64,000 bases of DNA, taken from the NCBI GenBank assembly GCA_002794035.1, contig PCXQ01000001.1, positions 3,256-67,255 of the forward strand, read 5' to 3'. Both the position numbers and the translations under genes were made by a program. Under the pieces are notes generated by a model. It was not told the DNA's origin. It saw only the letters and a list, made by a program, of their open reading frames with translations, and searched no databases. Every line of letters begins with the position of its first letter. The stretch's first letter is position 1. This document shows positions 32,672 through 50,970 of this stretch, piece by piece. Source of the stretch: Candidatus Yanofskybacteria bacterium CG10_big_fil_rev_8_21_14_0_10_36_16. Lineage in GTDB: Bacteria; Patescibacteriota; Minisyncoccia; 2-02-FULL-40-12; IGHO2-01-FULL-4-A.

Positions 32672-33718
32672 TTATTTCTTTAACATTTTTTCAGCAAGCG
32701 CTTTTAGGGCTTCTTCGCCTTCTACGCCGCGGAGGCGGCCGGCAAGAAAGCCGAGTTTGTAATTTATATCATCGGCTATTAAACGCCAATTTGTGTCAGC
32801 TAAGGTTTTTTTGAGTAACCTGCGAAGATCATATACACTACTCCGATCTTGCCGACCGGGTTTATTATCCTGCAATGAAAAACCCACGGTTAAATCCCGC
32901 CCTGCTTCCGGCTTATCAAAATCAAGTTTAGAATACCCAGCTTTTTTAATAGCGGGGTTGAGGTGATTCTGTAGTTCTACAATGGTAAGTTTTTTAATTT
33001 TAGCAACAGCATCATAAATCTCCTTGTTCTCCTCGTGGTCTTTCATCCATTCCGCTATTTCTTTAAGGTTGGCAGTCCATGAAATGTAATCCGTACCCTC
33101 TTTGTCAGATATACAATATTTTCTTCTATTTGCCTCAAAGTTTGGATCAACCTCTTCTCTCTTGTCTAAATCCCAGGTATCAGTTTCTTTCTGGCCACAC
33201 CCCGGACAATTATAAGCTGTCGTTATGATATTACCCTTCCGGTTATGGACGGATGTTCTATTCGCATGGCACTTAGGACAAGGGTTTTTATATTCCCACT
33301 CTTGACCGTTTTCCCAGTAAGCACGTCGGCTATTACAGTTACTGCAGTCAAAGAAAAAGAGAACCCTGTCGTTTTTATCATTAATATCGGTATGTAAGTC
33401 TTTAGATTCTACTTGCATTAAATGGCTACAACTAAGGCAGCGGATTCCTTTCGGCTCAATGGCGTTATTAATCCTATCGTCTTTGTCCTGATCGCGTTCC
33501 ATCCATTTATGTATGGTTTCTGATTTATTTCTATATCGCTCTCCTTTTTTGAAATATAGGCCAATTTCTGTAAAAGCACCGGTTATTGAGCCGGCTTTTT
33601 TATACTTATCTCTTGAAGAGATATGATTCACAGAGTTAACCCATTCTTCGCATTCTTTAATGGTTAGGCGGTCATAAAGTTCGTGATAATAACTTTCGTC
33701 TTTTAGATACTTATACAT
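32672..33718 (-). CDS. Hypothetical protein with four CxxC pairs (two zinc ribbons)
   Basis: 348 aa. CLSC, CSNC, CPKC, CPGC in the central region. 3 nt downstream of the NERD gene. Confidence 0.6.
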   Translation of the reverse strand: MYKYLKDESYYHELYDRLTIKECEEWVNSVNHISSRDKYKKAGSITGAFTEIGLYFKKGERYRNKSETIHKWMERDQDKDDRINNAIEPKGIRCLSCSHLMQVESKDLHTDINDKNDRVLFFFDCSNCNSRRAYWENGQEWEYKNPCPKCHANRTSVHNRKGNIITTAYNCPGCGQKETDTWDLDKREEVDPNFEANRRKYCISDKEGTDYISWTANLKEIAEWMKDHEENKEIYDAVAKIKKLTIVELQNHLNPAIKKAGYSKLDFDKPEAGRDLTVGFSLQDNKPGRQDRSSVYDLRRLLKKTLADTNWRLIADDINYKLGFLAGRLRGVEGEEALKALAEKMLKK

Positions 33719-33721
33719 TTA

Positions 33722-34366
33722 TTAAGAATCGTTTAATCTTTTGAGGCCCTTGGCGCTTTCAATATGTGACCTCCGGCTCTTTTTGTCCTTTATATCGGCG
33801 TTTTTGATAATGCTACAAATCTCGTCCCTTTCACTGTCAGACAATACCAAATCAGTATATTGTCTGATTTTTTCTACAGTATCCCTGCCATTACCGACTG
33901 TATCCGTACCAGTAATTTTAAGCTTATCCGCAGACGGGAAAATTATAAATGAATAAATGGGAGTATTTTGAAATCGCGGCTTTATTAGTGCCTCTATTGC
34001 TTTGGTGTGGGCGTAATTTTGCCTTAATGGATTATAGAATCTGCTCTTTCGTCTATAAATAACTTGGGTCCAGTATTGATCGCTGGCTTTACCGAAAATC
34101 CATCCAGAATAATCTTTCGTTTCAATGCAAAAAATTCCAAATCTTGAAACTATGATGTGATCAATTTGAGTTGTGCTTGTATTGCCGGTTGAAGGCAACA
34201 AAACGTCGCTTAGATTTATATACTGTTTAGGATCCAGCCCTGTCAGTTTTTTGTTTACAAATCTTTCGCCTAGCCAACCTTTCCATTGCGGAAACTTATA
34301 TTTAACCCACTGAACAATGAGATAAAGAAATCCAAACCAAATTAGTAAATATATAATGTTTTTCAA
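33722..34366 (-). CDS. Membrane-anchored NERD (nuclease-related domain) protein
   Basis: 214 aa. N-terminal TM helix, then GERFVNKKL...QIDHIIVSRFGIFCIETKDYSGWIFG...WTQ pattern typical of NERD. Confidence 0.8.
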   Translation of the reverse strand: MKNIIYLLIWFGFLYLIVQWVKYKFPQWKGWLGERFVNKKLTGLDPKQYINLSDVLLPSTGNTSTTQIDHIIVSRFGIFCIETKDYSGWIFGKASDQYWTQVIYRRKSRFYNPLRQNYAHTKAIEALIKPRFQNTPIYSFIIFPSADKLKITGTDTVGNGRDTVEKIRQYTDLVLSDSERDEICSIIKNADIKDKKSRRSHIESAKGLKRLNDS

Positions 34367-34389
34367 TTTATAGTTATTGATGTATTTAG

Positions 34390-35724
34390 TTAGAAGGCAT
34401 GTCGCTCATTTTTTGTGATTTTTTGTAAAAACATTTTTTGTTGTTTTTTCTTTTGTAACCAACCCAACTTACACAAATCAGTTACTACTGACTGGGATAT
34501 TTTATATAGTTGTTTATCTAAATCAATCACCGTATTATCAACTTGTAATGCCAAATCATTCAAGCCCATTAATTTGATACCATTTAGTGTTCTAACGCGG
34601 GATAGAGCCACATAACCCATCCCGTAAGTAAATGACTTGCTAAGGTCAATTTCTGCAGCGTCTAAGCTCATCCCTTGGCTCTTGTGGACCGTAATAGCCC
34701 AAGCAAGCCGCAGGGGTACTTGGCTTATCTCCGCTTTTATAAGGTCATTTTCTTCAACGGTCCAACTTGTTGGCCGAGCTGCCACTTCTTTGCCTTTAAT
34801 TGTTTTGATAATAGGATAACTATCACCATCAAAATCAATTACTTTGCCCAATGTTCCATTAACATATCCTTTATCAAAATTGTTCTTTACAAACATTACT
34901 ACGGCATCCTTTTTTAAGGTAAGCTCTTCCGGAGCCAAGCAGCCTTTTTTCAATGATTCTACAAGATATTTTTCACCCCTGCATTGCATTTTATAAGTTT
35001 TTGGTTCGCTTTCAATTTTATTAAGTTCAAAGTTATTAATTGCATCCACATCAACATTATGAGTATAAAGTTTGGTAGGAGTTATATTAGTAACGGCCGG
35101 TTTGTTAAACCGGCTTGTTAAAAGACCAAGTGATGTGTCAGATGTTTTGCCAGCTCTTATATCATTTAACACATTAAGAAAATTAAGATCTTGTTGCCGG
35201 TATTGTTCTGTCAGATAGCAAATCTTTATATTCATGTTCTCCCAAGCTTTAGATGTGTGTATAAAACTATCATCTTCACCATTTTTTGATACTGGCGGTA
35301 ATTGAAAAAAGTCTCCGGATAAAATTACCTGCAAACCGCCAAATGGCAAATCATTTTTCTTAAACGCTTTGCAAACCTTATCTACCATGTCTAATCGGAA
35401 TGAGTGAAGCATTGAAACCTCGTCTATTATTAAAACTTTTGTTTTTAGGAATCTTGCTCGGAAGTTAATATTTTTAAGTAACTTTGATAAATGATCATCG
35501 GTAATCTCGTTTTGTATTCCTAATCCCGCCCAAGAGTGTATTGTCCGGCCATTCATATGAGTTGCGGCAATGCCGGTTGAGGCGGTTATACCAACGCCAA
35601 TATTTTTCCCTTTCAGAAAGTTGATATACTTGTTTAATAAAAAAGTTTTCCCGCTTCCAGCGGGACCAGTTAGATACACATTATGTCCAAGTTTTAATAT
35701 ATCTAAAGCTTCCTGTTGGGTCAT
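34390..35724 (-). CDS. SF1 helicase, PIF1/RecD-like
   Basis: 444 aa. GPAGSGKTF, TIHSWAGLG, LIIDEVSM, GDFFQLPPV, ITVHKSQGMSLD. Confidence 0.85.
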   Translation of the reverse strand: MTQQEALDILKLGHNVYLTGPAGSGKTFLLNKYINFLKGKNIGVGITASTGIAATHMNGRTIHSWAGLGIQNEITDDHLSKLLKNINFRARFLKTKVLIIDEVSMLHSFRLDMVDKVCKAFKKNDLPFGGLQVILSGDFFQLPPVSKNGEDDSFIHTSKAWENMNIKICYLTEQYRQQDLNFLNVLNDIRAGKTSDTSLGLLTSRFNKPAVTNITPTKLYTHNVDVDAINNFELNKIESEPKTYKMQCRGEKYLVESLKKGCLAPEELTLKKDAVVMFVKNNFDKGYVNGTLGKVIDFDGDSYPIIKTIKGKEVAARPTSWTVEENDLIKAEISQVPLRLAWAITVHKSQGMSLDAAEIDLSKSFTYGMGYVALSRVRTLNGIKLMGLNDLALQVDNTVIDLDKQLYKISQSVVTDLCKLGWLQKKKQQKMFLQKITKNERHAF

Positions 35725-35743
35725 AAATTAAAAACTTAAAAAC

Positions 35744-37531
35744 TTAAAAACTTTGATAATACTCCCTTATCATATTAGCCATTAATTTTTGTCTTTCTTC
35801 CAGAAATTTTTGATAATCAGTAACTTCCATATCTAACACACTTACTGGTATGGCATTTTCTTTCAAGTTGTTTTCAAGCTCATTCTTGTCTTTAATGCCA
35901 CTGTATTTGAAAACCCCATTTTCAAGATGTTCCAATATTTCAGTAAAGTATTGTTTGGGTGATTTTGCTCCGATTTTGATATTAATTTCACTTTGTGTGT
36001 AGGCAAAATTGGCTATTTGGTTGTAATCTCTCTGTTTTAGCTTGTTGCTTTCAAGATATTTTTTGGGAAATATATGGTGTATATCTCCACGATGTATAAT
36101 CATATCTCGTACTTTTATATCAGTGGAAAGAAAACCTCTTTTTCCTAATTTTACTTGTGCTGCCCAAAAAAGTTTTAAGTACGGACTGGATATACTAGAT
36201 TTAACTAAATCGCGCACCAGACCTTCTGACCAGAATGTATCTGATAATTCAGCCCTCTCTATTCCTTCAAGATATTTTTCAGCACGCTGCTCAACGATGT
36301 TTCTTATATCTGTATCAAATTGGCTTTCGGGAGACCCAGAGTATCTTCCTATTAGCAGCGACATTATGAGCCACTTGCTAACTATACGCTCTATTTCAGA
36401 ATCATTGTATTCTTGTGATCTCAATTTGAGATATAAAATATAAGCAAAGTTTAAAGCATTTTTTGAACGAATTAACCCGCTTACTTCAAACCCCGCTGCC
36501 TTAACTATCATAGAAAAGCGTTCATAATGAGTTTTGTTTACAAAATCTAATACGCCGTTTTTTAATTTATTATAAGAATCCTCAACGATGGCTTCTTCGT
36601 AAGCCCTTGTTTCAAAGTTTCTACCAGATAGTAAACTTACCAAATCCCTCAACCTTCCGCGATTAAACTCTTTAGTAAAGCCAACCCTAATAATATCGGT
36701 ATAATCTGGTTGATAAATGTCATCCTGCAAGTTTTTGGCCCAAAGTATTTTTTGATAATATTCTGTATTAGTAAAGTCATCACTGGCGGATTTAATATTT
36801 TCAATAAACTCCGGATGTCGCAGAGTATGCGCAAAGTAATCTATTGCTTTTCTTAGATTTATCCCAAAATCTCCAAATGCTGCGATTCGTGACATTGCAA
36901 AGTCGGCCTGACTTAACACAACCCCCTCGGAGTTAATCCTGATAAATATTTCAGTAACCGTTTCTATATCAAGATTTTCTTTTAACTCTATAAATCCGAG
37001 CTGCTTATCTTTGATAGAATAAAGCTTGTCAATGTTGTTTTGAATGGTTTGTAAGTCTGCTTTTGGATTTCTTTTTTTGTATTCGTCTACAAGCGCAAAA
37101 ATACCTCCCTCATTTTTCAAAAACTCCGAAATATCACCAATCCAATTAACATCTTTTTCAATCGCGGGTGTTAATGTTTCAAACTTTTCCTCAATGGGAT
37201 TGAAGGCAATCCTGATTCTCATTTTTCTATATTCCTTGTCTAAAACTTCTTCTCCGAGAATGGCTGCTCTTAGTGCCGTAATTCGCTGCTGTCCGTCTAT
37301 AACAATTTTTTTACCGGATGATAAACTGCCATCTTTTAGACGAATAGATGGGTTACGCCATACAATTATGTAGCCAACAGGAAAGCCTTTATAGATAGAA
37401 TCCATCAAATCCCTCACTTTAATTGAACTCCACACAAAGGGTCGTTGAATCTCTGGTATAGCAATTTCATTGGACTGAACCCAGCTTAAAATGTCTTTAA
37501 TAAAATATTGATTTATAATGTATTGTTGCAT
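35744..37531 (-). CDS. DUF262/DUF1524 protein (GmrSD-like Type IV restriction family)
   Basis: Start moved to MQQYIINQ, 4 nt after the res stop. EIQRPFVW and IDGQQR (ParB-like NTPase) N-terminal; HRGDIHHIFPKKYL His-Me finger C-terminal. Confidence 0.85.
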   Translation of the reverse strand: MQQYIINQYFIKDILSWVQSNEIAIPEIQRPFVWSSIKVRDLMDSIYKGFPVGYIIVWRNPSIRLKDGSLSSGKKIVIDGQQRITALRAAILGEEVLDKEYRKMRIRIAFNPIEEKFETLTPAIEKDVNWIGDISEFLKNEGGIFALVDEYKKRNPKADLQTIQNNIDKLYSIKDKQLGFIELKENLDIETVTEIFIRINSEGVVLSQADFAMSRIAAFGDFGINLRKAIDYFAHTLRHPEFIENIKSASDDFTNTEYYQKILWAKNLQDDIYQPDYTDIIRVGFTKEFNRGRLRDLVSLLSGRNFETRAYEEAIVEDSYNKLKNGVLDFVNKTHYERFSMIVKAAGFEVSGLIRSKNALNFAYILYLKLRSQEYNDSEIERIVSKWLIMSLLIGRYSGSPESQFDTDIRNIVEQRAEKYLEGIERAELSDTFWSEGLVRDLVKSSISSPYLKLFWAAQVKLGKRGFLSTDIKVRDMIIHRGDIHHIFPKKYLESNKLKQRDYNQIANFAYTQSEINIKIGAKSPKQYFTEILEHLENGVFKYSGIKDKNELENNLKENAIPVSVLDMEVTDYQKFLEERQKLMANMIREYYQSF

Positions 37532-37535
37532 AAAT

Positions 37536-40217
37536 CTATTTTTCCCAAAGTCGGGCCGCTTCATCAAAGCTTTTCGGCTTCTGTGATAGCTTATCCCAAT
37601 CTTCTTGTTTAATATAAAGCATTTTGTATTTAACGTCGTTCTGAATACTATTAACATCTTTTATCCATTGTTCCAAGCGTTTTATTTTCTCAACATCGTC
37701 TAAGTCTTCGCGGCCTTTGGTTTCTATGATGTACACTTCTTTTTCTGAAACCTTTACGAAAAAGTCCGGGTAGTAATTTGAAATATCACCACTGGCATTT
37801 CGGTAATCAATCCTAAAATTAACTGCGAAGTAGTTTTTAGCATAAGAAATTATATCTTCCACTCCATCAAGAAAACCGGCAAACTCAAGTTCAAAATGCC
37901 CATCTCCAACTATTTTATTAAATGCGCTTTTCTTCGGTACAAGATATGCTTGATCCTTCACGACAAATGGTCGGCTCTTACTAATCTTAATATAATTTTG
38001 GATCTCGGCCTCGCCCTTATCTACCACGGTCAATTCGTTTATCTTCTTCTTAAATGTTTCTGTTACTGTTTTGCTGGCTTCAAGCTCTGACAAATTACGC
38101 AAAGCATTAAGATCGTCCAACTGTATTTTTTTATCAAAAAGGTTGTTTTCAATAAACTCTTTTACTTGGCCGTATAGAATATCATAACCGCTAAATAACC
38201 GAAGCTCTTTCATAATAACATTGGTAAAATACCCTATAACACTTTGGTAATCTGGTATGAAATTACTATCTAACTCTGTCTTGTGAGTTATATCACCGCT
38301 GGTAATATCCCTGAATATAATTTCGCGCTTTTCTTCTTCTGAAAACTCCTTTAATTTAACTTTCTTGTGACCAAATGTTGAAACATCAAGGTCTGAAAGG
38401 TTTTTATATTCCCGATAAATACGCGGTGTAAGAATGGGTATTTGAATATCTAACCTCGGTATATCTTTTTTGGTGTTTTCATTATCAACCTCAACAACCA
38501 AAGGAGCTTTAGGTTCTGTGCCTTCTCCCATTTTTCTGTGCTCAAGCTCAACACCTTCACTTTTAATAGATTCCACAAAATCCATAAAAGCATCTGTGCC
38601 CACTACACTAACTAATTCCGGCACTTCTTCGTTGCGATACATTCGTCTTAACCCTCTTCCAAGTGTTTGTTCTGGCAATATGTTGCTCTTTGAAGAATAA
38701 GGCCGCAATCCAACAATGGTTGTAACATTACGGACATCCCAACCTTCTTTAAGCATTAACACGGAAACTATGGCCTTATAAGGATTATCAAAATTATCAA
38801 TCTTGTTTGCTGCTTCCCGCAGCTTTTTTAATTCCTCCTCATTTTTCCCAGTTGCGCTTTCGGATATTTCACCGTTATTTTTTGTATGAATTACTAATAC
38901 AGAGTTTTTAAACTCCGGATAAGTATTTTCAAGATATTCAGCAACTTCATCACCGTTCTTAGTATCGTCGGTCATTAAAAACAAAACTGCTTTTTTGCCC
39001 AGTTTTATATGTTCATCATAAACCTTTTTCCACTCCAAATAACCGAGATGGACATAGTCCTTGTATTTCTCACTGAACTTTGAACTTTTATGCTCTTGTA
39101 GCTTGGCTCGGCTTGCAGAATCGGGCAGGACCGGACGCTTTACTACGTTTTGGTGAATGGCTTCAACCAATGGGTAATCGCTTATTGTTTGAACAAATAT
39201 AGCTCCGTTATTATGTCTTGGGGTAGCTGTTACATCAATTTGTAAAGATAATTCTTTGCCTTTCATCTTGAGACGATTGTGTATATCTTCTATGGACTTA
39301 AACCACGCTAAACGGCCATCGTGGATATGGTGCGCTTCATCATTTAGTACAACCAGCTCATCTATATCTCTAACTATTACCCCAAGATCAACTTTTGATT
39401 CATTTGTTGCGCCAACTGGTTTTTCGCCAAGAAAATATCGGGCCGTGTTTTCATCTTCAAAACTCGCAGCACTGCTATTACTCTCATAAACCCGATGAAT
39501 GTTAGTTAGAAAAATGTTTCCAGTTTTTTTAACTACACCTATTTCGTCTTGAATATGCAAAGTTAATTGAAAATCATCCCGCCAATTTTGGCCTGCAAAA
39601 CCATTATCCGGAAGTACCGGGTCTTCAAAAAATATCTTTAAGCCGTCAAAATCAGACCTGATACGGTCTAAAACAATAATGTTGGGGGTGATAACCAAAA
39701 AGTTTCGGGCTAATTTTGAATCCTCTTCATAAAGTTTATGAAAGAAGCTCCAAGCAAGAAGTAAACTTAACACCTTTGTCTTGCCGCTTCCGGTTGCCAT
39801 TTTTATTACGAAACGTAACCAGGATTCTTCAAACATTCCTGCTGAAACTGCTCCGGAACTATCAAATCTTATAAGGTCGTATTTATCTTTTACTTTTGCT
39901 ACTTCGTGGAGATAAATGGTTGTTTCTACTGCTTCTCTCTGTCCAAAATAGTATTGAAAAAGAAAGGTCTCTCCATCTGTATTTTCTCTTGGGTGGTCTA
40001 TTTTAAACCACCATTTAAGTAACGCTTTACTTGTTTCACTTGCCCCTTCATAATCAGCATCTCGCCATTCTTTGACCTTCCTACGAAGTTGATCCACTAA
40101 AGGCGGTAAAAGCCGAGCATAGCCCTGTTCTCTTAATGTCTCGTCTGCCGGAAACCACCGGAGGTCCGGGTTTAAAATCTCGTGAGGTGATTGTGGAAAC
40201 TTAGGGTGTAGTGCCAT
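37536..40217 (-). CDS. res: Type III restriction enzyme Res subunit
   Basis: 893 aa. MATGSGKTKV, LNDEAHH (DEAH), helicase C motifs, C-terminal YYPDFFV...YIIETKG PD-ExK nuclease. Confidence 0.9.
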   Translation of the reverse strand: MALHPKFPQSPHEILNPDLRWFPADETLREQGYARLLPPLVDQLRRKVKEWRDADYEGASETSKALLKWWFKIDHPRENTDGETFLFQYYFGQREAVETTIYLHEVAKVKDKYDLIRFDSSGAVSAGMFEESWLRFVIKMATGSGKTKVLSLLLAWSFFHKLYEEDSKLARNFLVITPNIIVLDRIRSDFDGLKIFFEDPVLPDNGFAGQNWRDDFQLTLHIQDEIGVVKKTGNIFLTNIHRVYESNSSAASFEDENTARYFLGEKPVGATNESKVDLGVIVRDIDELVVLNDEAHHIHDGRLAWFKSIEDIHNRLKMKGKELSLQIDVTATPRHNNGAIFVQTISDYPLVEAIHQNVVKRPVLPDSASRAKLQEHKSSKFSEKYKDYVHLGYLEWKKVYDEHIKLGKKAVLFLMTDDTKNGDEVAEYLENTYPEFKNSVLVIHTKNNGEISESATGKNEEELKKLREAANKIDNFDNPYKAIVSVLMLKEGWDVRNVTTIVGLRPYSSKSNILPEQTLGRGLRRMYRNEEVPELVSVVGTDAFMDFVESIKSEGVELEHRKMGEGTEPKAPLVVEVDNENTKKDIPRLDIQIPILTPRIYREYKNLSDLDVSTFGHKKVKLKEFSEEEKREIIFRDITSGDITHKTELDSNFIPDYQSVIGYFTNVIMKELRLFSGYDILYGQVKEFIENNLFDKKIQLDDLNALRNLSELEASKTVTETFKKKINELTVVDKGEAEIQNYIKISKSRPFVVKDQAYLVPKKSAFNKIVGDGHFELEFAGFLDGVEDIISYAKNYFAVNFRIDYRNASGDISNYYPDFFVKVSEKEVYIIETKGREDLDDVEKIKRLEQWIKDVNSIQNDVKYKMLYIKQEDWDKLSQKPKSFDEAARLWEK

Positions 40218-40218
40218 A

Positions 40219-40614
40219 TTAGGTCAATCTGTAGATATATGCGTCTTTAATAAAAATACCGTTAATGATGTTTGATTTAAATCTAATACCTGCTTTTGAC
40301 TGTTTTGATGTTTTTATCATTGTTCTCAAAAGTTTCAGAAAGTCATTATCGTGATGAAGTATTGTTATATTTGAAAGTCCGATGTCTTTTACTGTTTTTT
40401 CTTCCCCGAATTGATTGATGAAATCATTATAATTTTGCCGCGTATTTTTAATACGGTCATATTTTTTTGATGAAATTAATAATCTCCAAGCATCTGACTC
40501 GGGAACAAGTATCCAAAGAAAAACCGTTGGATTTATTTTTTGTTTATCCATCAAATCTAATAAGGTTTTTCCACTTTCAATTTTTGGTTCTTCTACCATA
40601 ATTTTTTTATCCAA
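40219..40614 (-). CDS. 131-aa orphan protein paired with HEPN (no nucleotidyltransferase motif)
   Basis: Overlaps the HEPN gene by 22 nt and ends 1 nt before the res start. No GSx10DxD MNT signature. Confidence 0.55.
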   Translation of the reverse strand: MDKKIMVEEPKIESGKTLLDLMDKQKINPTVFLWILVPESDAWRLLISSKKYDRIKNTRQNYNDFINQFGEEKTVKDIGLSNITILHHDNDFLKLLRTMIKTSKQSKAGIRFKSNIINGIFIKDAYIYRLT

Positions 40615-41030
40615 ACTAAAATACCCTTACGCCTATCTTTTATTGAGTTGATTAAAGCTTCTGCGTCAGTTTTCTTGCATATTCCATATCTGCTTTCTTC
40701 GGTCCAATCTTTAACCGTGCTCCAATTTGACTCAAAGCCCTTATCTTTGCCTGCTCTCTTATCAAAGGCCCACTTGATACCACTTACACTCAATAAGTCG
40801 TTTAAATCGTGACTATAGAGTTTCTGATAAACACTCTTTTTTGGAGGGAAGCTCTTTTCTTTGACATTTTTGCAATAGCAAGCCTTGAGGGCAAGTTCAA
40901 CGGCATAACCTGCTAAATAGTAAGCACCACTATACTCCTTATTATTAAAAAGGGTTATCGCTTCTCTGATGCGCCTCAATGCTAACTTTTTAAAATCACC
41001 GTATTCTGGATTGTCCCAAAATAAAGCCAT
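40593..41030 (-). CDS. HEPN domain protein
   Basis: 145 aa. AYYLAGYAVELALKAC...SHDLNDLL...EESRYG pattern of HEPN (PF05168-like). Confidence 0.7.
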   Translation of the reverse strand: MALFWDNPEYGDFKKLALRRIREAITLFNNKEYSGAYYLAGYAVELALKACYCKNVKEKSFPPKKSVYQKLYSHDLNDLLSVSGIKWAFDKRAGKDKGFESNWSTVKDWTEESRYGICKKTDAEALINSIKDRRKGILVWIKKLW

Positions 41031-41033
41031 ACT

Positions 41034-43283
41034 TTATATACTAATCTCAATTATTTTCATTGTATCGTTACCGAAAATATCTACGACCTTTATGGCAATT
41101 TTACGTCTGCCTTTTGGTAATTCTTTATAAGCGGTTATAAACTCAAGGTTTCTGTCCTTTTTGGTTCTAAATGATTGCCATTCGTTTTCAAAAATGTAAT
41201 CGCCGGTCCATTGTTCTTCAATTTCTTCCTTTTCGTTTTTTATAGCCACAACTTCTTTTTTGCTTTCAAAGTTAAAGTCAACGGACCAGTAATCAATCCA
41301 ATCACTCCATTTTTCAGTCAAAACATCCCTTGTAACTACACCCTCTTTGTCTTTTGAGATTTTAATAATTTTACCATTTTCTACTACAAGCTTTTTGCTG
41401 CCGTTTTTGAGGCTTTCTTCTACCTCTTTAATTGAATCTTGATTATAAAAAACTGAAAAATCAGTTAACTCAATGGCCAATGAGTTCTTTTTTATATGAG
41501 GCTTAACTTCAATGTAAGATACGTCGTGAAAAACAACTTGGTTTTTTTCTACAGCCCGTTTGTCAAATACATCTCGTGGAATATATTTAAGGGCCAAATC
41601 AACACCTTGATTTTTGGCATCTTCTTGTATTCTCGGAAATAATCCCATTTCAAACTCAAAAGCCAATATGTCTACTTTAGTTATTTTCTTTTCAACTGCT
41701 TCTTTAATTACTTCTTCAACAAATAACCGAGTAACTGGCAAGTTAATTGGGCCAACAGATACTAATCTTGCAGATTTTTTACCGAAAAAGGTTTTGAAAT
41801 TATTAATTGGTTCTGCTTTGTATGCTGACAGGATTAAAGAAACAAAATCTTTTTCTTTCTGTGCGATTTGTTTTTGCTTTTGCTCGTCCCGAAGATTGGG
41901 GTTTATACCAACGTAATGCTGCCTTTCATATTTACCAAGATTTAATACTTCAAATGCCCGATAATCTTTCCCAGTCTTTTTAAGTTCTCGTTGCACTCCA
42001 ATCATTCTCTTGCGTGTTGTGTGAATTGAGAACTTACCCAAGTCAGAACCAATCCATTTGCGGCTTAGTTTTTCAGCTGCAGCAAGGGTGGTACCAGAAC
42101 CGACAAAGAAGTCGGCAACAAGATCGTCCTCGTTTGAAGAGGCCTTTATTATGCGCTCAAGTAAGGACTCTGGTTTTTGGGTTGGATAATTATTACGTTC
42201 TTTAGCCATTGGATTAACTGGATTTATATCTAGCCAAATATCTTCAGAAACATTTCCTTTAGTATCTTCGTAAAACCTTTTTACATATGGTAACCCACTT
42301 TCAGAAAAAACAATAAGTCCCCGTTTCATTCCTTCATCTATTCTTTCTTGAGACCATATCCAGTGTTTGCCTGCCGGTGGATACAGCAACTTTTCACCGA
42401 ATTTTTTTGCTTCACCTTGTCCCTTTTGAGTAAAATCAGCCAAAGAATATCTTTTTCCCGTTTGCTCATCGGTGTACCTGTAATGAGTTTTTAATAATTT
42501 TTCCGATTTCGGTAAAAATTGAGTATTAAAAATAGTCTTCTCTTTATCTTTTGAATAAAAGAAGACTGTATCATGTACGTTTGGATAAGTTTTTGACTGT
42601 GGCTTAGCCGATGTCAGTTTTTGCCAAATAATTTCATTTTTAAAATTATTAGTTCCAAATATCTCATCTAATACCAACCTCATGTAGCTGTTAACCCTCC
42701 AATCACAATGTACATAAATACTCCCGTTTGCGGCCAACAAATCTCGCATCAGTGAAAGTCGCTCGTAAATCATAGAGATAAAACTATCTGCTCCCTTGCC
42801 CCAAGTATCCCGATATGCTAATTCCTCTAATACTGTTGGTTGTTTCTTAAACTCTTCGCCCCCAACCTCAATATCCATAGAAAAATCTGCCCCAACATCA
42901 AAAGGCGGATCAATGTAGATAAGTTTAATGCCCCCATTAGCTTCAATTTCTTCTCGTAGGGGTCCATTTTTTAAGCTTGATAGGATTAGTTTGTTGTCAC
43001 CCCAAATAAGTTTATTAGTCCAGCCCTTGATTTGGCGGCCGCGCTGGTCAAAATCAAACAACACCTGCTGGCGCTTTACTTCCTTCTCACTTCTCGGCTC
43101 ATCAACCTGTTCAATAACCTGAAATGGCAAGATAACATTGGTGACTTCATTTGTCTTGCCGTTCCAGACAAGCTCAACCTCTCGTTTGTCCTCAAACAAA
43201 AGAAACCGGTACTTATCGGGAAGAGGTTTACCGGCTTCAATAAACTTTATAGCATCGCGTTTTTCATTGTCAGTTAGATCCAT
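41034..43283 (-). CDS. mod: Type III R-M Mod subunit (beta-class N6-adenine/N4-cytosine DNA methyltransferase)
   Basis: 749 aa. IYIDPPFDVGADF (motif IV) precedes DFFVGSGTTLAAA (motif I). C-terminal extension of about 330 aa. Confidence 0.9.
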   Translation of the reverse strand: MDLTDNEKRDAIKFIEAGKPLPDKYRFLLFEDKREVELVWNGKTNEVTNVILPFQVIEQVDEPRSEKEVKRQQVLFDFDQRGRQIKGWTNKLIWGDNKLILSSLKNGPLREEIEANGGIKLIYIDPPFDVGADFSMDIEVGGEEFKKQPTVLEELAYRDTWGKGADSFISMIYERLSLMRDLLAANGSIYVHCDWRVNSYMRLVLDEIFGTNNFKNEIIWQKLTSAKPQSKTYPNVHDTVFFYSKDKEKTIFNTQFLPKSEKLLKTHYRYTDEQTGKRYSLADFTQKGQGEAKKFGEKLLYPPAGKHWIWSQERIDEGMKRGLIVFSESGLPYVKRFYEDTKGNVSEDIWLDINPVNPMAKERNNYPTQKPESLLERIIKASSNEDDLVADFFVGSGTTLAAAEKLSRKWIGSDLGKFSIHTTRKRMIGVQRELKKTGKDYRAFEVLNLGKYERQHYVGINPNLRDEQKQKQIAQKEKDFVSLILSAYKAEPINNFKTFFGKKSARLVSVGPINLPVTRLFVEEVIKEAVEKKITKVDILAFEFEMGLFPRIQEDAKNQGVDLALKYIPRDVFDKRAVEKNQVVFHDVSYIEVKPHIKKNSLAIELTDFSVFYNQDSIKEVEESLKNGSKKLVVENGKIIKISKDKEGVVTRDVLTEKWSDWIDYWSVDFNFESKKEVVAIKNEKEEIEEQWTGDYIFENEWQSFRTKKDRNLEFITAYKELPKGRRKIAIKVVDIFGNDTMKIIEISI

Positions 43284-43371
43284 GGGCCATAGTAAGATAA
43301 CTTTTACTTAAAGGGTATCACTTTTGTGCTGTTTTTTAAAGGTCTGAAAAAGAGCGTTGAGGGCGTTGACA

Positions 43372-43785
43372 CTAAACGAGAAATTGAGCGACAAACCAGA
43401 TGCCGGCAGTAATTAAAAACCATATCAACTGATTGGCTTCCCTAAAATCTCCGGAGCGGTAGTAGCGGCCAACTTGGGTTACGGTAAATATCGCGGCAGT
43501 CATCGGGATAAAGTTAAATGGAATATCAAATCTAAAGGACACGAGATAATATACGATTATTAAAGCTACCGCTTCGGAAAAACCCGAAAAGCGTGATTTT
43601 AAAATATCGCTATGTTTATCTAACAACCCTTTGAATGGGGCATAAATGAACATAGCAATAATTGGACTAATGGCTGCGATATAAAACAATGAGAATAAGG
43701 CCCATAAGAATGGCAAAAATATAAAAGAAGAAATAATAACTATACCCCATAGCAGTAAACTAATTTTTGATTTTATTACATCCAT
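43372..43785 (-). CDS. Small four-helix membrane protein, unknown function
   Basis: Start moved to MDVIKSKISLLLWG (137 aa). 88 nt upstream of mod on the same strand. Confidence 0.55.
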   Translation of the reverse strand: MDVIKSKISLLLWGIVIISSFIFLPFLWALFSLFYIAAISPIIAMFIYAPFKGLLDKHSDILKSRFSGFSEAVALIIVYYLVSFRFDIPFNFIPMTAAIFTVTQVGRYYRSGDFREANQLIWFLITAGIWFVAQFLV

Positions 43786-43810
43786 AAAATTACAAAACCC
43801 GCCGCTAGGC

Positions 43811-43897
43811 GATGGATTTCTCCACCTGTTACCCTTTCGGGTAACAACCACTGCTGGTGCTCCTAAACGACGGGTTTAGTACCCAGCAGTGGTTTTT
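43811..43897. promoter_or_regulatory. Cluster of GC-rich hairpins (candidate structured leader or small RNA)
   Basis: gatgga-tttc-tccacc, gttaccc-tttc-gggtaac (GAAA loops on the minus strand), and a 10-bp stem ccactgctgg/ccagcagtgg enclosing ctaaac-gacgg-gtttag, then TTTTT. Confidence 0.4.
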
Positions 43898-44012
43898 ACG
43901 TCATACCTCAAATGTTGACATTTTGAGGGTTAGGCAATTTTTAGTTGTTAGACCAATATTATCACAAAACCTTGAAAATCTCCATAATTTTCGTTTTACT
44001 TAAATTAATACT

Positions 44013-44768
44013 ATGGCCTTAATTAACGACAAACAATTTAAACAATTTTTAGAACTCCTAATAAATAAGGTTGAATTAAGAAACGATATTCATTTGGGAA
44101 TACAATACCGTGAATTAATCCAAATATTTTTAGATGATAACGCTATCAAAGATTATTTGCGCTATTCTGAAAATAAGAAGTTGTTAAAATTAATAGGCAT
44201 ATCTAAATATAAAGAAAAGGAAGATCCTTACCCTGATGATTATTATATAAACGAGATAACGCCTAACAATGATTTTATAGGCCCGAAAAGATATTATGCC
44301 GTAAAGAGGTATATACGGTATAATTTCTACCCAAAGGACAACTTTATACTTGATGTGTCTGATAAAAAAATTAAAGGTTTTTATAAGCAGTATCAAAAAG
44401 AAGGTCCGGGGCAAGACCCAAAACGGCTAATTTCCAAAAATAAAAGTGCTTATTTTTATAAATCAAAACAAATAGTTTTTGACAGTGAAGAAACTGACTA
44501 CTTCAGAGTATTTGATGTCCTTTACGAAAATAGTGGGCAAGACAACTTTTTGTCATATGAAAATATAGATAAAGAAATGGTCCGAAGGGGCTCGCCAAAA
44601 CTTATAGATGATCAACAAAAAATTAAACGTATTCATAATGCAGTTAAGAACTTATTTTTATATTCTCGTTGCGGAAGTGAAAAGCTAAAAAATACTACGC
44701 CCAATAAAACTGAACTAATAAAAAAGGTTAGAGGGAGAGGGTGTGTTTTCAATAACCCTCTAATTTAA
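44013..44768 (+). CDS. Hypothetical protein, possible C-terminal winged-helix
   Basis: 251 aa. C-terminal KKVRGRGCVFNNP resembles OmpR/PhoB-type wing endings. Confidence 0.45.
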   Translation: MALINDKQFKQFLELLINKVELRNDIHLGIQYRELIQIFLDDNAIKDYLRYSENKKLLKLIGISKYKEKEDPYPDDYYINEITPNNDFIGPKRYYAVKRYIRYNFYPKDNFILDVSDKKIKGFYKQYQKEGPGQDPKRLISKNKSAYFYKSKQIVFDSEETDYFRVFDVLYENSGQDNFLSYENIDKEMVRRGSPKLIDDQQKIKRIHNAVKNLFLYSRCGSEKLKNTTPNKTELIKKVRGRGCVFNNPLI

Positions 44769-44899
44769 TAAGTTATCTCTCAATTTCTTGTGGACAGCCA
44801 AATATCGGCTGTCTTTTTTTCTTTTTTTACTTGGTTTTAGCGGCCAAAGAGATAAACGGAGAAATTAAAAGATATTAAATATTGATTCAAAATTAAATT

Positions 44900-45526
44900 A
44901 TGCAACCAATAATTAAAACTTTTACTGAACCGGATTGGGATTATCTGTTTTGGACTTGGGATTTAGAAAAACAATGGCAGGAGTCATTGCCAAGGCCAAC
45001 TGAACGAGAGTTGTTAGGTATTTTCCCGGAAGCAAAAAAGATATTGCCGGCATTATTAAGGGACTGGCAACAAAGAAAAAGTGAATTAACCAAAGAACTG
45101 GCTCGGAAATTAAAAATAGTAAAACTTGGCGCGGATAGCGACAGCGAAAGATTTTTCTGGACTGAATGGCTGAAAACAAAATATTTAGGAGAAATTACTG
45201 AAATCGTTAATGACATTAAAAAGTTCAAGAGAATGATGGCTATATCAAACAACCGGGGCCGAGCCTTACGAAGCGAAGAGTCATTGCAAAAGGCTTTAGC
45301 TGTGCCAATAGCATCGGCTATCCGAATTAAACTAAGAAAATTGGGTAATAAACTTGTTGGGCTGTGTCCCCTACATAACGAGAGTAACCCATCATTTTAT
45401 ATCTATACCGATACTAATTCCTTTTATTGCTACGGATGTGGCAAGGGTGGAAATGTAATCAACTTGGTTAGATTTCTACACGATTACACATTCCCAGAAG
45501 CAATAAAGTATTTAACTAATTTATAA
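44900..45526 (+). CDS. CHC2 zinc-finger protein (DnaG-primase-type finger)
   Basis: 208 aa. CPLHNESNPSFYIYTDTNSFYCYGCGKGGNVINLVRFL. Confidence 0.65.
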   Translation: MQPIIKTFTEPDWDYLFWTWDLEKQWQESLPRPTERELLGIFPEAKKILPALLRDWQQRKSELTKELARKLKIVKLGADSDSERFFWTEWLKTKYLGEITEIVNDIKKFKRMMAISNNRGRALRSEESLQKALAVPIASAIRIKLRKLGNKLVGLCPLHNESNPSFYIYTDTNSFYCYGCGKGGNVINLVRFLHDYTFPEAIKYLTNL

Positions 45527-45609
45527 CTTTTGTTTCTTGTTCGGGCTCTTGGCAAAGGCCATAGTAAGCTCCGGCCAGGAGCTCAAACAAGAAACGCGGA
45601 GCTTACTTT

Positions 45610-47154
45610 ATGTCAAACAACCAAAACAATGAAAAACAAAATAAGGAAGGGCGGAAACCACAAGCAACCAAAATCGTAGAATTGGTCAGTGAAAGCAACA
45701 TAACCCTATTCCATAACGAGTTAAAACAGCCCTATGCCTATATTGAAATAAATAACCATAGCGAAATATGGCCCTGTGAAAGCAGGCAATTTAAGGACTG
45801 GCTGGGACACATATTTTGGAATAACGAAGGAAAATCTGCCTATCCTAATGCGATAAACGGTGCGCTATCAACATTAAGAGCCAAGGCGCTTTACGAAGGA
45901 CAGAAGTATAAACTAAACAACCGAGTAGCAATCAAAGACGGTGCAATTTGGTATGACCTTTCTAACAATAACTGGGAAGCGGTCCGTATAAGCAAAAATG
46001 GATGGCGAATCATAGGCAACCCTCCTATCATATTTCAGCGCTTTTCTCATCAGCAAGAACAATTAACCCCGGTACCAGAAGGAAATATAAAGGATGTCTT
46101 ATCGCTAATCAATGTAAAAAAAGAACACCAACTGCTTTTATTGGTTTACTTAGTATCCTGTTTTATTCCGGACTTTCCCCATCCGATATTGGTGGTTCAC
46201 GGGCCTCAAGGCTCATCAAAATCAATGCTATCCAAAGTTCTTAAAAGCTTAGTTGATCCATCTGTATTAGAAACTTGCGACTTCCCTGCAAGTAAAGCGG
46301 AACTGGCTCAAATACTATCCCACCATCACTATGTTGTCTTTGATAATCTCTCGTACCTATCAGATTCAAATTCCGACATTCTATGCCGTGCTGTTACCGG
46401 AGGAGGATTTTCAAAACGGGAACTCTACACGAACGACGAAGACGTAATACACCTATTTAAGCGTTGCATAAACCTCAACGGCATAAATCCGGTGGCAACA
46501 AAACCAGACCTGCTAGAACGAAGCATATTACTGGAATTAGAAAGGATACCCAATGAAAAAAGGAAAAAAGAGACAGATATTTTGCAGCAATTTGAAACCA
46601 AGAGACCAGAAATATTAGGGGCAATCCTAAACACAGTTGCCAAAGCAATGGAGATTAAAGAATCAATAAAAGTAACTGGATTGCCGCGGATGGCGGATTT
46701 TACAGAGTGGGGTTGCGCTATCGCTGAAGCAATAGGACATCCAAAAGAAGAGTTTTTATCTTCTTATTTTGAAAACATAAAGTCGCAAAATGACCAGGTT
46801 ATTTATGATAGCCCTGTTTGCAGTACTCTTTTGAGCTTAATGAAGGAGCGAGAGCAATGGAATGGAACAGCAACGCAACTTTTATCTGAGTTAATTGAAG
46901 AGGCGGAAAGGTTAAATATCAACACAAAAGAAAAAGGCTGGCCCAAATCAGCAGCGTCATTAAGCGGTAAATTAAATAACTATAAAACCAATCTTGAAGA
47001 AGCCGGTATAAAAATAAATCGTTTTGATGAAAACAGGCAAAGACAATTATCTATCAGCAATGATTCTGCTATTGAGAGCCAGGCCGGCAACGGATTAGCC
47101 GAAGAAGACGATAGAGACGCTGCAACGCTCTCAACGCTCTTTCCCGAGCATTAA
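45610..47154 (+). CDS. P-loop NTPase, putative element replication helicase (phage/plasmid primase-associated type)
   Basis: 514 aa. VVHGPQGSSKSMLSKVL Walker A and VVFDNLS Walker B-like. Follows the CHC2 gene. Confidence 0.55.
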   Translation: MSNNQNNEKQNKEGRKPQATKIVELVSESNITLFHNELKQPYAYIEINNHSEIWPCESRQFKDWLGHIFWNNEGKSAYPNAINGALSTLRAKALYEGQKYKLNNRVAIKDGAIWYDLSNNNWEAVRISKNGWRIIGNPPIIFQRFSHQQEQLTPVPEGNIKDVLSLINVKKEHQLLLLVYLVSCFIPDFPHPILVVHGPQGSSKSMLSKVLKSLVDPSVLETCDFPASKAELAQILSHHHYVVFDNLSYLSDSNSDILCRAVTGGGFSKRELYTNDEDVIHLFKRCINLNGINPVATKPDLLERSILLELERIPNEKRKKETDILQQFETKRPEILGAILNTVAKAMEIKESIKVTGLPRMADFTEWGCAIAEAIGHPKEEFLSSYFENIKSQNDQVIYDSPVCSTLLSLMKEREQWNGTATQLLSELIEEAERLNINTKEKGWPKSAASLSGKLNNYKTNLEEAGIKINRFDENRQRQLSISNDSAIESQAGNGLAEEDDRDAATLSTLFPEH

Positions 47155-47186
47155 TAAAACAAGGGGTACTACCCATAACTTAAGTT

Positions 47187-47558
47187 ATGCAGTGTAAATA
47201 CATAAAAAATAATAAAAAACAGTGCGGAGCAAACGCAATGCTCAAAAACAGTTATTGCTTTTATCATAATCCGGATGTCAAAAAAGCAGATAAAAAAGAG
47301 GCTCAATCAAGAGGTGGTAAGGGCAATAAAAGTAGAGTTAGTGAAACTCTTCCGCCAATAACTTTCAAGAAGTCCCGAAACGTCGTCGGATTGCTTGAGG
47401 AAACTATTAATTTGGTTAGGGCAGGAAAAATGGAAATACGAGTTGCTAACTGCATAGGATACTTGTCGGGCCACATCATCAAGGCAATTGAGGTTTCAGA
47501 GCTTACGCAACGCCTACAGGAAGTTGAGAAAAAAATAGAAATAAAATGGCAGGAATAA
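47187..47558 (+). CDS. Hypothetical protein (mobile-element small ORF)
   Basis: 123 aa, basic N-terminus with Cys pairs. Overlaps the next ORF by 13 nt. Confidence 0.5.
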   Translation: MQCKYIKNNKKQCGANAMLKNSYCFYHNPDVKKADKKEAQSRGGKGNKSRVSETLPPITFKKSRNVVGLLEETINLVRAGKMEIRVANCIGYLSGHIIKAIEVSELTQRLQEVEKKIEIKWQE

Positions 47559-47836
47559 CTTTATCTACAATAAAAAGATTAGAGAAAAAAGCCGAAGAAT
47601 TAAGGGCGGCAAATCCAATAGTGGACCGGGTCATAACTGTTCCTTGGCCTTTAGAGATTTATAGCGAAGAGGGAGAAAGATTTATCCAAGAGGAAATTGA
47701 GCGGCGAAATCAAATTAGGAAAGAATCCGGTATTTATTCCGAAGGTCCTTTCTACGTGATTATGCCGGGTAGAATGCCTCAATGGGTGGCCGAAGAAGAA
47801 TGGAGGAAACAAGAAGAGGCAGAGAAACTTAAATAA
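47546..47836 (+). CDS. Hypothetical protein (mobile-element small ORF)
   Basis: 96 aa, charged. Translationally coupled to the upstream ORF. Confidence 0.5.
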   Translation: MAGITLSTIKRLEKKAEELRAANPIVDRVITVPWPLEIYSEEGERFIQEEIERRNQIRKESGIYSEGPFYVIMPGRMPQWVAEEEWRKQEEAEKLK

Positions 47837-47866
47837 TTTCCAATTTTAAGTTATAATGAGTAAACT

Positions 47867-47959
47867 ACACAAAAACCCAAATAGTAGTCAAGACCTTGAA
47901 CATAACGAGGGGCAACGAGGGTTTTTGTGTAGTAACAAAACTTCTTGTCGTTGCCCCTC
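47867..47959. promoter_or_regulatory. Two interlocked perfect 12-bp inverted repeats upstream of the recombinase gene
   Basis: A: acacaaaaaccc (47867-47878) pairs with gggtttttgtgt (47919-47930). B: gaggggcaacga (47907-47918) pairs with tcgttgcccctc (47948-47959). Confidence 0.6.
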
Positions 47960-48058
47960 TTTGTGCTATAAGGCGTCCTCTGTTTTAGATCCCAAGTCAT
48001 TAGAACAAGCATATTTTAGAATTTTTGACTGGGTTTTAGAAAACAAGGACAGTAAATT

Positions 48059-49702
48059 ATGGAAAAAACAAAAAGATTAGCTGCTCTATATGGTAGAGTA
48101 AGCACATCAAACCAAGAGGACCAGAAAACAATTGAGAACCAAGTTGATGCTCTTAATGAGTTAGCGAACAAAAATGATTTTACCATTGTTCAAGAATATA
48201 AAGATGATGGTTGGTCCGGAGATATTTTAGCCAGACCGGCCCTTGATCAGCTAAGGCAAGATGCAAAAAGTAAAATATGGGATACTTTGTTAATTTACGA
48301 TCCGGATAGGTTGGCCCGAAGATACTCATACCAGGAGTTGATTATGGACGAGTTAAAAGAGGCCGGGGTTGAAGTGATATTTATTACTGTATCTGCACCA
48401 AAAAATCCTGAAGATAAGATTTTGCATGGAGTTCGGGGGTTATTTGCAGAATATGAGAGGGTACGGATTACAGAACGTTTTCGTTTAGGAAAGCTCCGCA
48501 AGGTAAAAAACGGCCATGTATTAACAACGGAAGCCCCTTATGGCTATAACTACATAAGAGGAGACAGAGAAAGGCAAATACACGGTTATTATAAAATTAA
48601 CCCCGAGGAAGCAGAGGTTGTAAAAAAGATTTTTCAGTGGATTGGGGATGAAAAACTAAATATCAGAGCTGTTGTAAGAAAATTAAAAGAAGTAGGAATT
48701 AAACCAAGAAAAGCCAAAAGAGGTGTTTGGGCTACGAGCACAATATCAACAATGCTAAAAAACGGGGCTTATATTGGAGAGGCACATTGGGGTAGTTCGT
48801 ATGCAGTAGTACCCGAAAATCCAATCAAAAAAGAGAAGTATAAAAAAATGAAAAAAAGTAGCCGGAGAATAAAACCGAAAGAAGATTGGATAGCATCTAA
48901 AATACCTGTACCTGCCATAATAACCAAGGAGCTGTTTGCAAAGGTACAAAAACAACTAAAAACAAATTCCTCTCTATGTCCAAGAAATAAAAAATATACA
49001 TATCTACTAGGCGGCAAAATACATTGTGTATGCGGTAAAACCAGAAGTGGAGTAGGCCCACAGCGCGGTAAGCATCTATACTATCGCTGTAATGACAGGA
49101 TTTATAGCTTTCCTATACCTCCTACCTGTAAAGAACAAGCCATCAATGCAAGGATAGCTGATGAATTAGTTTGGAATAAAATAGCAAATCTTATGAGTTC
49201 ACCGGAATTGTTAAAAAACCAAGCAGAAAAATGGTCTGATTCTCGCAAGGTGGGGGCAAGATCTCATATTGGCGATATAGAAACAACAGAAAAGGAAATA
49301 TTAAAGTTAAAAGCACAGGAGGATCGCTATAATAAAGCATATGGTGCCGGGGTGTTTGATATAAACCAATTAAAAGAGTATGTTGCTCCGGTAAGAGAAC
49401 GAATAGAATTGTTAAAATCCCAAATAGTCAAAATCAAACAGGAAGAAAACCAGTCGCAAGACAATGCCCTCCCCTCGCTAGATGAAATCCGGTCATTTAC
49501 GAAAGTAACAAGAAATGCTTTATTTAACTTGAATTTTGAAATGAAAAGAGCCACAATTTTAAATGTTATAGATAAAATTATCGGTACACAAAAACAATTG
49601 AAGGTGTATGGTCAAGTGCCGATAACACAAAATTATGTCACATACAAAACTAGCTATCGGTATAGTCGGGTTGCCCAATGTTGGAAAATCAACATTATTT
49701 AA
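48059..49702 (+). CDS. Large serine recombinase (integrase)
   Basis: 547 aa. N-terminal resolvase domain (AALYGRVSTSNQ), recombinase domain, Cys-rich zinc ribbon (CVCG...YYRC), coiled coil. The last 68 nt overlap ychF. Confidence 0.9.
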   Translation: MEKTKRLAALYGRVSTSNQEDQKTIENQVDALNELANKNDFTIVQEYKDDGWSGDILARPALDQLRQDAKSKIWDTLLIYDPDRLARRYSYQELIMDELKEAGVEVIFITVSAPKNPEDKILHGVRGLFAEYERVRITERFRLGKLRKVKNGHVLTTEAPYGYNYIRGDRERQIHGYYKINPEEAEVVKKIFQWIGDEKLNIRAVVRKLKEVGIKPRKAKRGVWATSTISTMLKNGAYIGEAHWGSSYAVVPENPIKKEKYKKMKKSSRRIKPKEDWIASKIPVPAIITKELFAKVQKQLKTNSSLCPRNKKYTYLLGGKIHCVCGKTRSGVGPQRGKHLYYRCNDRIYSFPIPPTCKEQAINARIADELVWNKIANLMSSPELLKNQAEKWSDSRKVGARSHIGDIETTEKEILKLKAQEDRYNKAYGAGVFDINQLKEYVAPVRERIELLKSQIVKIKQEENQSQDNALPSLDEIRSFTKVTRNALFNLNFEMKRATILNVIDKIIGTQKQLKVYGQVPITQNYVTYKTSYRYSRVAQCWKINII

Positions 49703-50897: not shown

Positions 50898-50914
50898 AAT
50901 AAACAGTAGTTTTT

Positions 50915-50945: not shown

Positions 50946-50970
50946 TATTTAAGATTTGAACTCTTTATAA

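Follow-up and report, generated by a model that had tools for sequence, protein, structure and literature searches.

A HEPN gene and its conserved alpha/beta partner form a candidate toxin-antitoxin cassette within a Type III restriction-modification operon

What is the role of two small genes that lie between the methyltransferase gene (mod) and the restriction gene (res) of a Type III restriction-modification (R-M) operon? This question is raised by a stretch of 64,000 nucleotides (nt) from Candidatus Yanofskybacteria bacterium CG10_big_fil_rev_8_21_14_0_10_36_16 (contig PCXQ01000001.1), hereafter referred to as the window. In its minus-strand operon, mod is followed by a gene encoding a HEPN-domain protein and by a second small gene, which we call the partner, before res begins. 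Our analysis suggests, with moderate confidence, that the two genes constitute a toxin-antitoxin (TA) or abortive-infection module, in which a HEPN dimer would act as an RNA-directed effector that the partner inactivates by direct binding, and which travels as accessory cargo of the R-M operon.

The gene anatomy was read from the whole window. The four genes, in the order mod, HEPN, partner and res, and the junction of the two small genes are as follows (aa, amino acids; SD, Shine-Dalgarno):

41034..43283, minus strand: mod, Type III R-M methyltransferase, 749 aa (Pfam N6_N4_Mtase 1.9e-47; PADLOC MTase_III 2.3e-117)
40593..41030, minus strand: HEPN-T (PF05168-type), 145 aa, ATG start (Pfam PF05168, 29.1 bits)
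40219..40614, minus strand: partner, 131 aa from a TTG at 40614, or 126 aa from an ATG at 40599
37536..40217, minus strand: res, Type III R-M restriction subunit, 893 aa (Pfam ResIII 1.7e-15, plus C-terminal Tn7_TnsA-like_N and RE_endonuc)
40593..40630, minus strand: dual-coding HEPN/partner junction with HEPN codons K-G-I-L-V-W-I-K-K-L-W-stop, an SD-like AAGGG, the partner TTG start and the alternative ATG inside

The mod stop codon is separated from the HEPN ATG by 3 bases (41031-41033), HEPN and partner overlap by 22 nt (40593-40614), and a single base (40218) remains between the partner stop and the res ATG; a preliminary description of this DNA had given the two intervening genes and all three spacings exactly. 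The host genes combine an N6/N4 methyltransferase (Mod) with a co-directional Res that carries a helicase and a C-terminal endonuclease, as is characteristic of Type III R-M. Res also matched PADLOC REase_III and the NCBIfam BPTD_3080-family restriction endonuclease (5.9e-81, under the model's own cut-off). As judged from their large homologue families and confident AlphaFold2 (AF2) models, both small open reading frames (ORFs) are genuine genes rather than chance ORFs. Public annotations place the partner start at the in-frame ATG (40599), yielding 126 aa and a 7-nt overlap (ATGGTAG). The 131-aa call with its 22-nt overlap is plausible because the 22-nt overlap dominates in the wider family, in which the 7-nt form is minor; either start, TTG (-22) or ATG (-7), is possible in the window.

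Our interpretation draws on the strict pairing of the two genes. We inspected 118 loci, comprising 80 genome loci from many bacterial and archaeal phyla and 38 HEPN matches on viral contigs. Within the genome loci, all 81 partner genes had the same HEPN family directly upstream and on the same strand. This set includes 77 separate upstream HEPN ORFs, two in-frame fusions and two HEPN remnants that are truncated or interrupted by stop codons (loci L037 and L082). On the viral contigs, the partner lies directly downstream of HEPN in 38 of 38 matches. The junction is equally well conserved. In 56 of the 77 loci with separate ORFs, the overlap measures 22 nt, so that the partner ATG falls on the HEPN W140 codon (..A TGG..), the HEPN stop follows Trp145, and a GGAG contributed by the HEPN G136-V137 codons lies ~7 nt upstream of the partner ATG; the -7 start form (ATGGTAG) was seen in 6 of 77. 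The 22-nt overlap is kept across bacteria and archaea, and its conservation together with the SD-like GGAG argues for coupled translation. The two in-frame fusions (L027:1032-1787 from a Methanobacteriota metagenome-assembled genome (MAG) and L036:5575-6372 from a Sandaracinaceae MAG) may be real, or may reflect single-base assembly errors within the overlap. Two small, co-directional and overlapping genes that are strictly co-inherited and occur in variable or mobile contexts display the generic features of a TA cassette, and the pair would thereby represent one self-contained, translationally coupled unit.

The upstream gene encodes a HEPN protein, as had been recognized from the outset. Its PF05168 match exceeds the gathering cut-off (29.1 bits versus 22; E 1.2e-6; residues 13-125), and 1,464 homologues were found, many of them with precomputed PF05168 assignments. 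The AF2 model (mean predicted local distance difference test (pLDDT) score 92.3) shows an all-alpha up-down bundle that superposes on solved HEPN domains, while a search of the HEPN profile against PDB sequences returned spurious FliS matches only. In an alignment of 120 homologues, residues R20, Y38, G41, Y42, E45, K49, H74, W103, W109, R114, Y115 and W145 are invariant. The canonical Rx4-6H motif is absent because no His follows 4-6 residues past R114: a conserved His at positions 118-121 is missing from every part of the family, and the window protein reads SRYGICKKTD around R114. The lack of this motif on careful alignment had been named beforehand as a finding that would speak against the original proposal, and on this point the expectation of an Rx4-6H HEPN has to be abandoned; R114-Y115 and H74 are retained. 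H74 and R114 are both 100% conserved, and H74 is located between helix 33-55 and helices 86-106 of the model. Judging from the alignment, the protein fits the pattern of AF0298-like HEPN-T domains, in which the motif Arg is kept, the His is lost and an alternative His resides in the helix 2-3 insert. For AF0298-like HEPN-T and AbiV, the kept Arg and an alternative conserved His have been proposed as an alternative active site (Anantharaman et al. 2013, PMC3710099). The same study also considers non-catalytic RNA binding for PF05168-type HEPNs and describes that classical HEPNs can be nucleotide- or substrate-binding subunits. PF05168 proteins without RX4HXY define the 'Class II' of modules in which HEPN is paired with a minimal nucleotidyltransferase (MNT; Yao et al. 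2020, PMC7641770). The HEPN of the window would probably act as a dimer, either as a metal-independent RNase or as an RNA-binding toxin, employing Arg114-Tyr115 and His74 instead of Rx4-6H.

The partner matched nothing in Pfam, NCBIfam, PADLOC or PDB sequences, irrespective of whether the single sequence, a scan of 81 family members or a profile was used, and its sole match in any library was phrog_5760 (PHROG 5760, no assigned function) at 5.4e-4. A k-mer search returned four relatives; family size was therefore taken from an exhaustive profile search, which yielded 1,019 cluster representatives at E ≤ 1e-3 and 334 at E ≤ 1e-10 (clusters at 50% identity) in many phyla of bacteria and archaea and in phages. 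This search rules out the orphan gene that the preliminary description had assumed. The closest homologues share 75%, 58% and 52% identity with the window partner, and nearly all family members are stand-alone proteins of 120-140 aa. A search of viral contigs with an alignment of the close partner clade returned no relatives. Residues G10, D18, W29, W38, Y57, T97, D119, Y123 and R124 are conserved in an 81-sequence alignment, along with the W38-R39 pair, an invariant Trp and a C-terminal hairpin (GIRFxxNVINGxxIEDAYIYR). The MNT (PF01909/PF18765) signature GSx10DxD (hG[GS]x9-13DxD), or an equivalent conserved acidic pair, is absent from this alignment, which extends to the family what had been noticed for the single sequence.

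Structure prediction of the partner alone, which had been proposed as a check, gave a confident alpha/beta model (mean pLDDT 93.6) with the topology alpha-beta-beta-alpha-alpha-beta-alpha-beta-beta. At the position where the GS turn and helix of an MNT would sit, the model shows a beta1-beta2 hairpin and no helix. Its top structural matches are MNTs, including MntA-type proteins, and all of these matches are weak. Comparison of the partner profile with an MNT profile by hhalign gave a probability of 0.2%, the MNT profile being narrow (69-98% identity). We did not file the partner as an MNT because this profile-profile comparison was null, and the null result together with the lack of matches in Pfam, NCBIfam, PADLOC and PDB rules out, at the sequence level, an ordinary MNT or a known antitoxin, in agreement with the initial suspicion. 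AMPylation as carried out by MntA can be excluded, as far as motifs tell, because nucleotidyltransferase catalytic motifs are lacking. The partner belongs to an unnamed alpha/beta family and is a probable neutralising partner, i.e., an antitoxin. Always co-encoded with the HEPN, it would most likely neutralise the latter by direct binding as a protein antitoxin.

Gene decay points in the same direction. Among the 118 loci, nine carry a disrupted HEPN (by N-terminal deletion in two, frameshift in four and an in-frame stop in three) and one a disrupted partner, an asymmetry with a binomial p of 0.022. An apparent HEPN truncation at L075 was left out of this count, as it coincides with a contig end. 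The only locus with an interrupted partner (near residue 33) beside a seemingly intact HEPN is L028:6004-6393 from Virgibacillus oceani. The HEPN has a median isoelectric point (pI) of 9.1, the partner one of 6.4. The decay asymmetry, the pI pattern and a lone partner gene described below fit a HEPN toxin and a partner antitoxin; these indications are indirect and come from few events. Obligate pairing, conserved overlap and asymmetric decay make a new HEPN-neutralising partner, as originally suggested, the best reading of the gene, with neutralisation itself being what we infer.

We then asked whether the pair is generally found between mod and res. It is not: across the 80 genome loci, the cassette has varied neighbours, for the most part housekeeping genes with lineage-specific synteny (LysE, FKBP, UPF0047, TPP enzymes), and linkage to R-M is for this reason not a family trait. 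A Pfam census of up- and downstream neighbours found AAA_15/AAA_21 in only four cases and no R-M families among the commonest neighbour families, which rules out a family-wide association with R-M or defence islands. A recurrent downstream gene of ~210-220 aa proved to be LysE or FKBP and not DUF3800. Heterogeneous and mobile contexts are typical of TA cassettes.

The family also reaches E. coli. A version of the pair that is at least 99% identical occurs in 190 of 5,426 complete E. coli genomes (~3.5%), where WP_001038620.1 and WP_000520500.1 are annotated in RefSeq as 'HEPN domain-containing protein' and 'hypothetical protein'. It is situated in the accessory region of lambdoid prophages between replication protein P and ybcN/ninE/rusA, with E. 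coli O26 RM10386 as an example (L211; NZ_CP028126.1, 642190-642986). An Acinetobacter plasmid and a Klebsiella phage likewise carry relatives. At L007:814-2379, the closest non-identical relative with visible context (partner 58% identical), the genes after the pair encode DUF3800 and the N-terminal part of another ResIII-family protein. This points to an R-M-like operon with which the pair became associated independently; the contig breaks off too early for a mod gene to be seen. A lone partner homologue (52% identical) is present at L008:1028-1471 on a 3-kb phage-like contig beside a T4-type large terminase, with no HEPN remnant in any frame at this locus. A terminator-like hairpin precedes this gene. 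It may represent a phage-borne antitoxin mimic, seen in this single instance.

The host operon itself puts the finding in a different light. A metagenome scan with the window Res retrieved 80 loci of 68-80% identity (L131-L210), in 70 of which mod is visible upstream. In 34 of these 70, the two genes are direct neighbours that overlap or are separated by no more than 13 nt, whereas the remaining 36 contain a gap of 60-3,442 nt occupied by one to three co-directional, tightly packed genes. The customary adjacency of mod and res, from which the question had started, accordingly holds for about half of this Res lineage, the other half carrying unrelated genes at the junction. In all 70 loci, the mod C-terminus is conserved up to its stop codon (FGNDTMK.IE..; FGNDTMKIIE in the window) and is followed by either cargo or res; inserts are placed exactly between it and the res N-terminus MALHxxFPxSP, such that mod forms the 5' border and res the 3' border of the slot. 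The inserts group into 34 protein clusters, of which 22 consist of one ORF each, with a few of these ORFs being very short. The following cargo had Pfam matches:

Schlafen AlbA_2 + HATPase_c_4 (13 loci)
KTSC + NYN (4 loci)
DUF488 and DUF6864
OLD-type AAA_15 + TOPRIM
ClpP-like protease
PIN
AAA_21 ATPase
Fic/DOC

Variable cargo in 36 of 70 operons identifies the mod-res junction as a variable slot for accessory genes, mostly of nuclease or toxin type. The HEPN-partner pair was not among the inserts of the 36 sister operons, and the window cassette is one cargo of this slot. Embedded proteins without a Pfam match are candidate defence genes, e.g., L146:3866-4753, L166:4193-4993, L159:3478-4995 and L181:3956-4612. 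Within the window, the cassette would probably provide a second line of defence, act as an addiction module that stabilises the surrounding island, or both.

Several points weigh against a TA or abortive-infection module. The putative toxin gene comes first, opposite to the order of MNT-HEPN modules, and the HEPN is devoid of the canonical Rx4-6H; PF05168-type HEPNs might bind RNA rather than cut it. Many type II antitoxins carry a DNA-binding domain, whereas none is recognisable in the partner. The decay asymmetry amounts to 10 events, many of them in MAG assemblies, in which frameshifts may be sequencing errors. Moreover, HEPN and partner of the window are both basic (pI 9.5 and 9.6). Gene anatomy, family assignments, missing motifs, obligate pairing with its conserved overlap, decay asymmetry and the variable slot are thus what the analysis shows, whereas toxicity, RNase activity, neutralisation by binding and an anti-phage role are inferred, the physical interaction of HEPN and partner from genetics alone.

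Different explanations have to be weighed against this background. The partner, whose best, though weak, fold matches are MNTs, might be a degenerate MNT that stems from a Class II (PF05168/PF01909) module, has lost GS and DxD and neutralises the HEPN by binding or as a pseudo-enzyme. Such an origin would refine the TA reading and is compatible with it. The null hhalign result, obtained with a narrow MNT profile, the missing GSx10DxD or acidic pair, the beta1-beta2 hairpin in place of a helix at the GS-turn site, and a gene order opposite to that of MNT-HEPN modules argue against it, and we consider this origin rather doubtful. Alternatively, the HEPN might not be a toxin at all, in that the pair forms a non-toxic two-subunit factor, e.g., a regulator that binds nucleotides or RNA, or else a counter-defence module that is carried by phages and rides on mobile elements. 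The HEPN lacks a canonical catalytic motif, classical HEPNs can be non-catalytic binding subunits (PMC3710099), the pair is found in prophages and phages, and many of its genomic neighbours are housekeeping genes, all of which would suit such a factor. Strict invariance of R114, Y115, H74, E45 and K49 across distant phyla, however, argues for a conserved active or binding site. In addition, the HEPN decays far more often than the partner, the distribution is patchy and independent of context, and the slots otherwise hold nuclease- or toxin-type defence genes. A non-toxic factor therefore appears improbable to us.

The location of the cassette invites a further explanation, in which the HEPN is PrrC-like: the Mod/Res complex would silence the HEPN, which fires once a phage inhibits restriction. 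In favour of this, the operon is tightly spaced (3 nt, overlap, 1 nt), another ResIII gene is found downstream of the pair in the close relative L007, and there is a precedent in PrrC-EcoprrI as well as in at least 16 R-M-linked HEPN clades (PMC3710099). Yet the pair brings its own dedicated partner, overwhelmingly has no R-M neighbour in the 80 genome loci and resides in the prophage nin region in E. coli, while about half of the sister-operon slots are empty and the others hold unrelated cargo. PrrC contains an N-terminal ABC ATPase regulatory domain fused to HEPN, and this domain is absent here. Consequently, a PrrC-like mechanism seems very unlikely. The preliminary description had also considered co-translation with the R-M enzyme; the tight spacing is compatible with co-expression, but we saw no sign that the pair functionally depends on this enzyme.

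With the TA or abortive-infection module as the preferred reading, we compared the pair to known systems. It is close to Class II HEPN/MNT modules (PF05168 + PF01909; AF0298-type, TT1696, ST0689; Makarova 2009, Anantharaman 2013, Yao 2020), with which it shares the HEPN subfamily by Pfam and fold, the lack of RX4HXY and the organisation as a small two-gene cassette in bacteria and archaea. In contrast to these modules, the partner is not an NTP_transf_2/Polbeta protein, as it lacks GSx10DxD, a Pfam match and profile similarity, and the order is reversed, with HEPN first and a fixed 22-nt overlap. HepT/MntA (Class I, type VII TA; SO_3166/SO_3165) likewise combines a HEPN with a small alpha/beta protein, and MntA-type proteins are among the weak structural matches of the partner. 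The defining features of this class are a toxin with RX4HXY, an antitoxin with GSX10DXD and an MNT gene located upstream (PMC7641770). All three are absent from our pair, and its HEPN belongs to Pfam family PF05168, not to DUF86.

PrrC/EcoprrI and other R-M-embedded HEPNs likewise feature a HEPN nested in an R-M operon, and sister operons of the window carry other defence genes at the same position. Here, however, the host system belongs to Type III and not to Type I, the HEPN is a single-domain protein of 145 aa with its own partner, and the family is unlinked to R-M. Links to R-M have been described for at least 16 HEPN clades, with 'several instances' in PF05168 (PMC3710099), and embedded genes have been put forward as defence candidates ('guilt-by-embedding'; Payne et al. 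2024, bioRxiv 10.1101/2024.01.29.577857). Similarity to PADLOC PDC-M28 (with the HEPN PDC-M28A) and lactococcal AbiV is weak, at the HEPN level and well below family level (26-38 bits for PDC-M28A; 17 bits in PADLOC and 13.5 bits with TIGR04498 for AbiV, both under the cut-offs), and the partner matches no PADLOC model. Membership in PDC-M28 was ruled out, with typical family members scoring 30-38 bits and the partner never matching. AbiV is paired with an RNA antitoxin, and the L. lactis protein contains a functional RNHKSKH motif (10.1101/2024.05.05.592566). HepS, a solo HEPN abortive-infection protein of the Gifsy-1 prophage (Nature 2026, PMC13043305), is likewise a small HEPN in the lambdoid accessory region by the replication genes. 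It differs from our pair in being a single gene with a canonical RX4-6H and no conserved partner (PMC13043305). We found no paper that characterises the pair; neither of its E. coli accessions occurs in the literature searched or in the portions of the DefensePredictor supplements that were covered, and DS-28 of the DefensePredictor study is another HEPN pair.

HEPN genes nested in R-M operons and the clustering of PF05168 HEPNs with R-M are already known (PMC3710099). Three aspects appear to be new: a partner family that none of the searched libraries names, the strict tie of this family to a single HEPN-T clade in reversed gene order and through a fixed dual-coding junction, and the cargo slot documented in this Type III lineage. 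Tentatively, the partner family may constitute an unrecognised class of antitoxins or immunity proteins for PF05168-type HEPNs, possibly a binding neutraliser derived from an MNT, with phages perhaps carrying the lone partner as counter-defence; separately, the mod-res junction may serve as an exchangeable slot for immune genes. PF05168-type HEPN/MNT modules are among the commonest predicted TA systems. Since our pair keeps the HEPN and swaps the nucleotidyltransferase for a catalytically bare partner, it offers a clean test of HEPN toxicity and of silencing by binding alone. Being native to E. coli prophages, the pair is directly testable in E. coli. The variable mod-res slot, in turn, extends 'guilt-by-embedding' to a Type III R-M lineage and gives a list of candidate defence genes.

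The operon itself is part of a ~17.5-kb region (32200-49800 of the window) that is a probable integrative island; att-like direct repeats were not found for it. Downstream of res, the operon continues with a GmrSD-family gene, PIF1, NERD and a 348-aa protein without assignment. The features of the island and its flanks are:

Minus strand: defence operon mod-HEPN-partner-res-GmrSD-PIF1-NERD-348 aa
35744-37657, minus strand: GmrSD-family gene directly after res (GmrSD_N 6e-33; PADLOC HEC-05 6e-32)
44900-45526: CHC2 primase-like gene
45610-47154: 514-aa protein without assignment
48059-49702, plus strand: large serine recombinase
29774-31255: Mur ligase, flanking housekeeping gene
49635-50783: YchF GTPase, flanking housekeeping gene

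The longest GmrSD ORF overlaps res by 122 nt; public calls place its start 4 nt past the res stop or let it overlap by 32 nt. GC-rich palindromic hairpins (AAAACCCCGCCAAGGCGGGGTTTT-like) that resemble intrinsic terminators were seen at 26388-26428, 50908-50948 and 51857-51897, and a tRNA-Leu(CAA) is located at 26151-26233.

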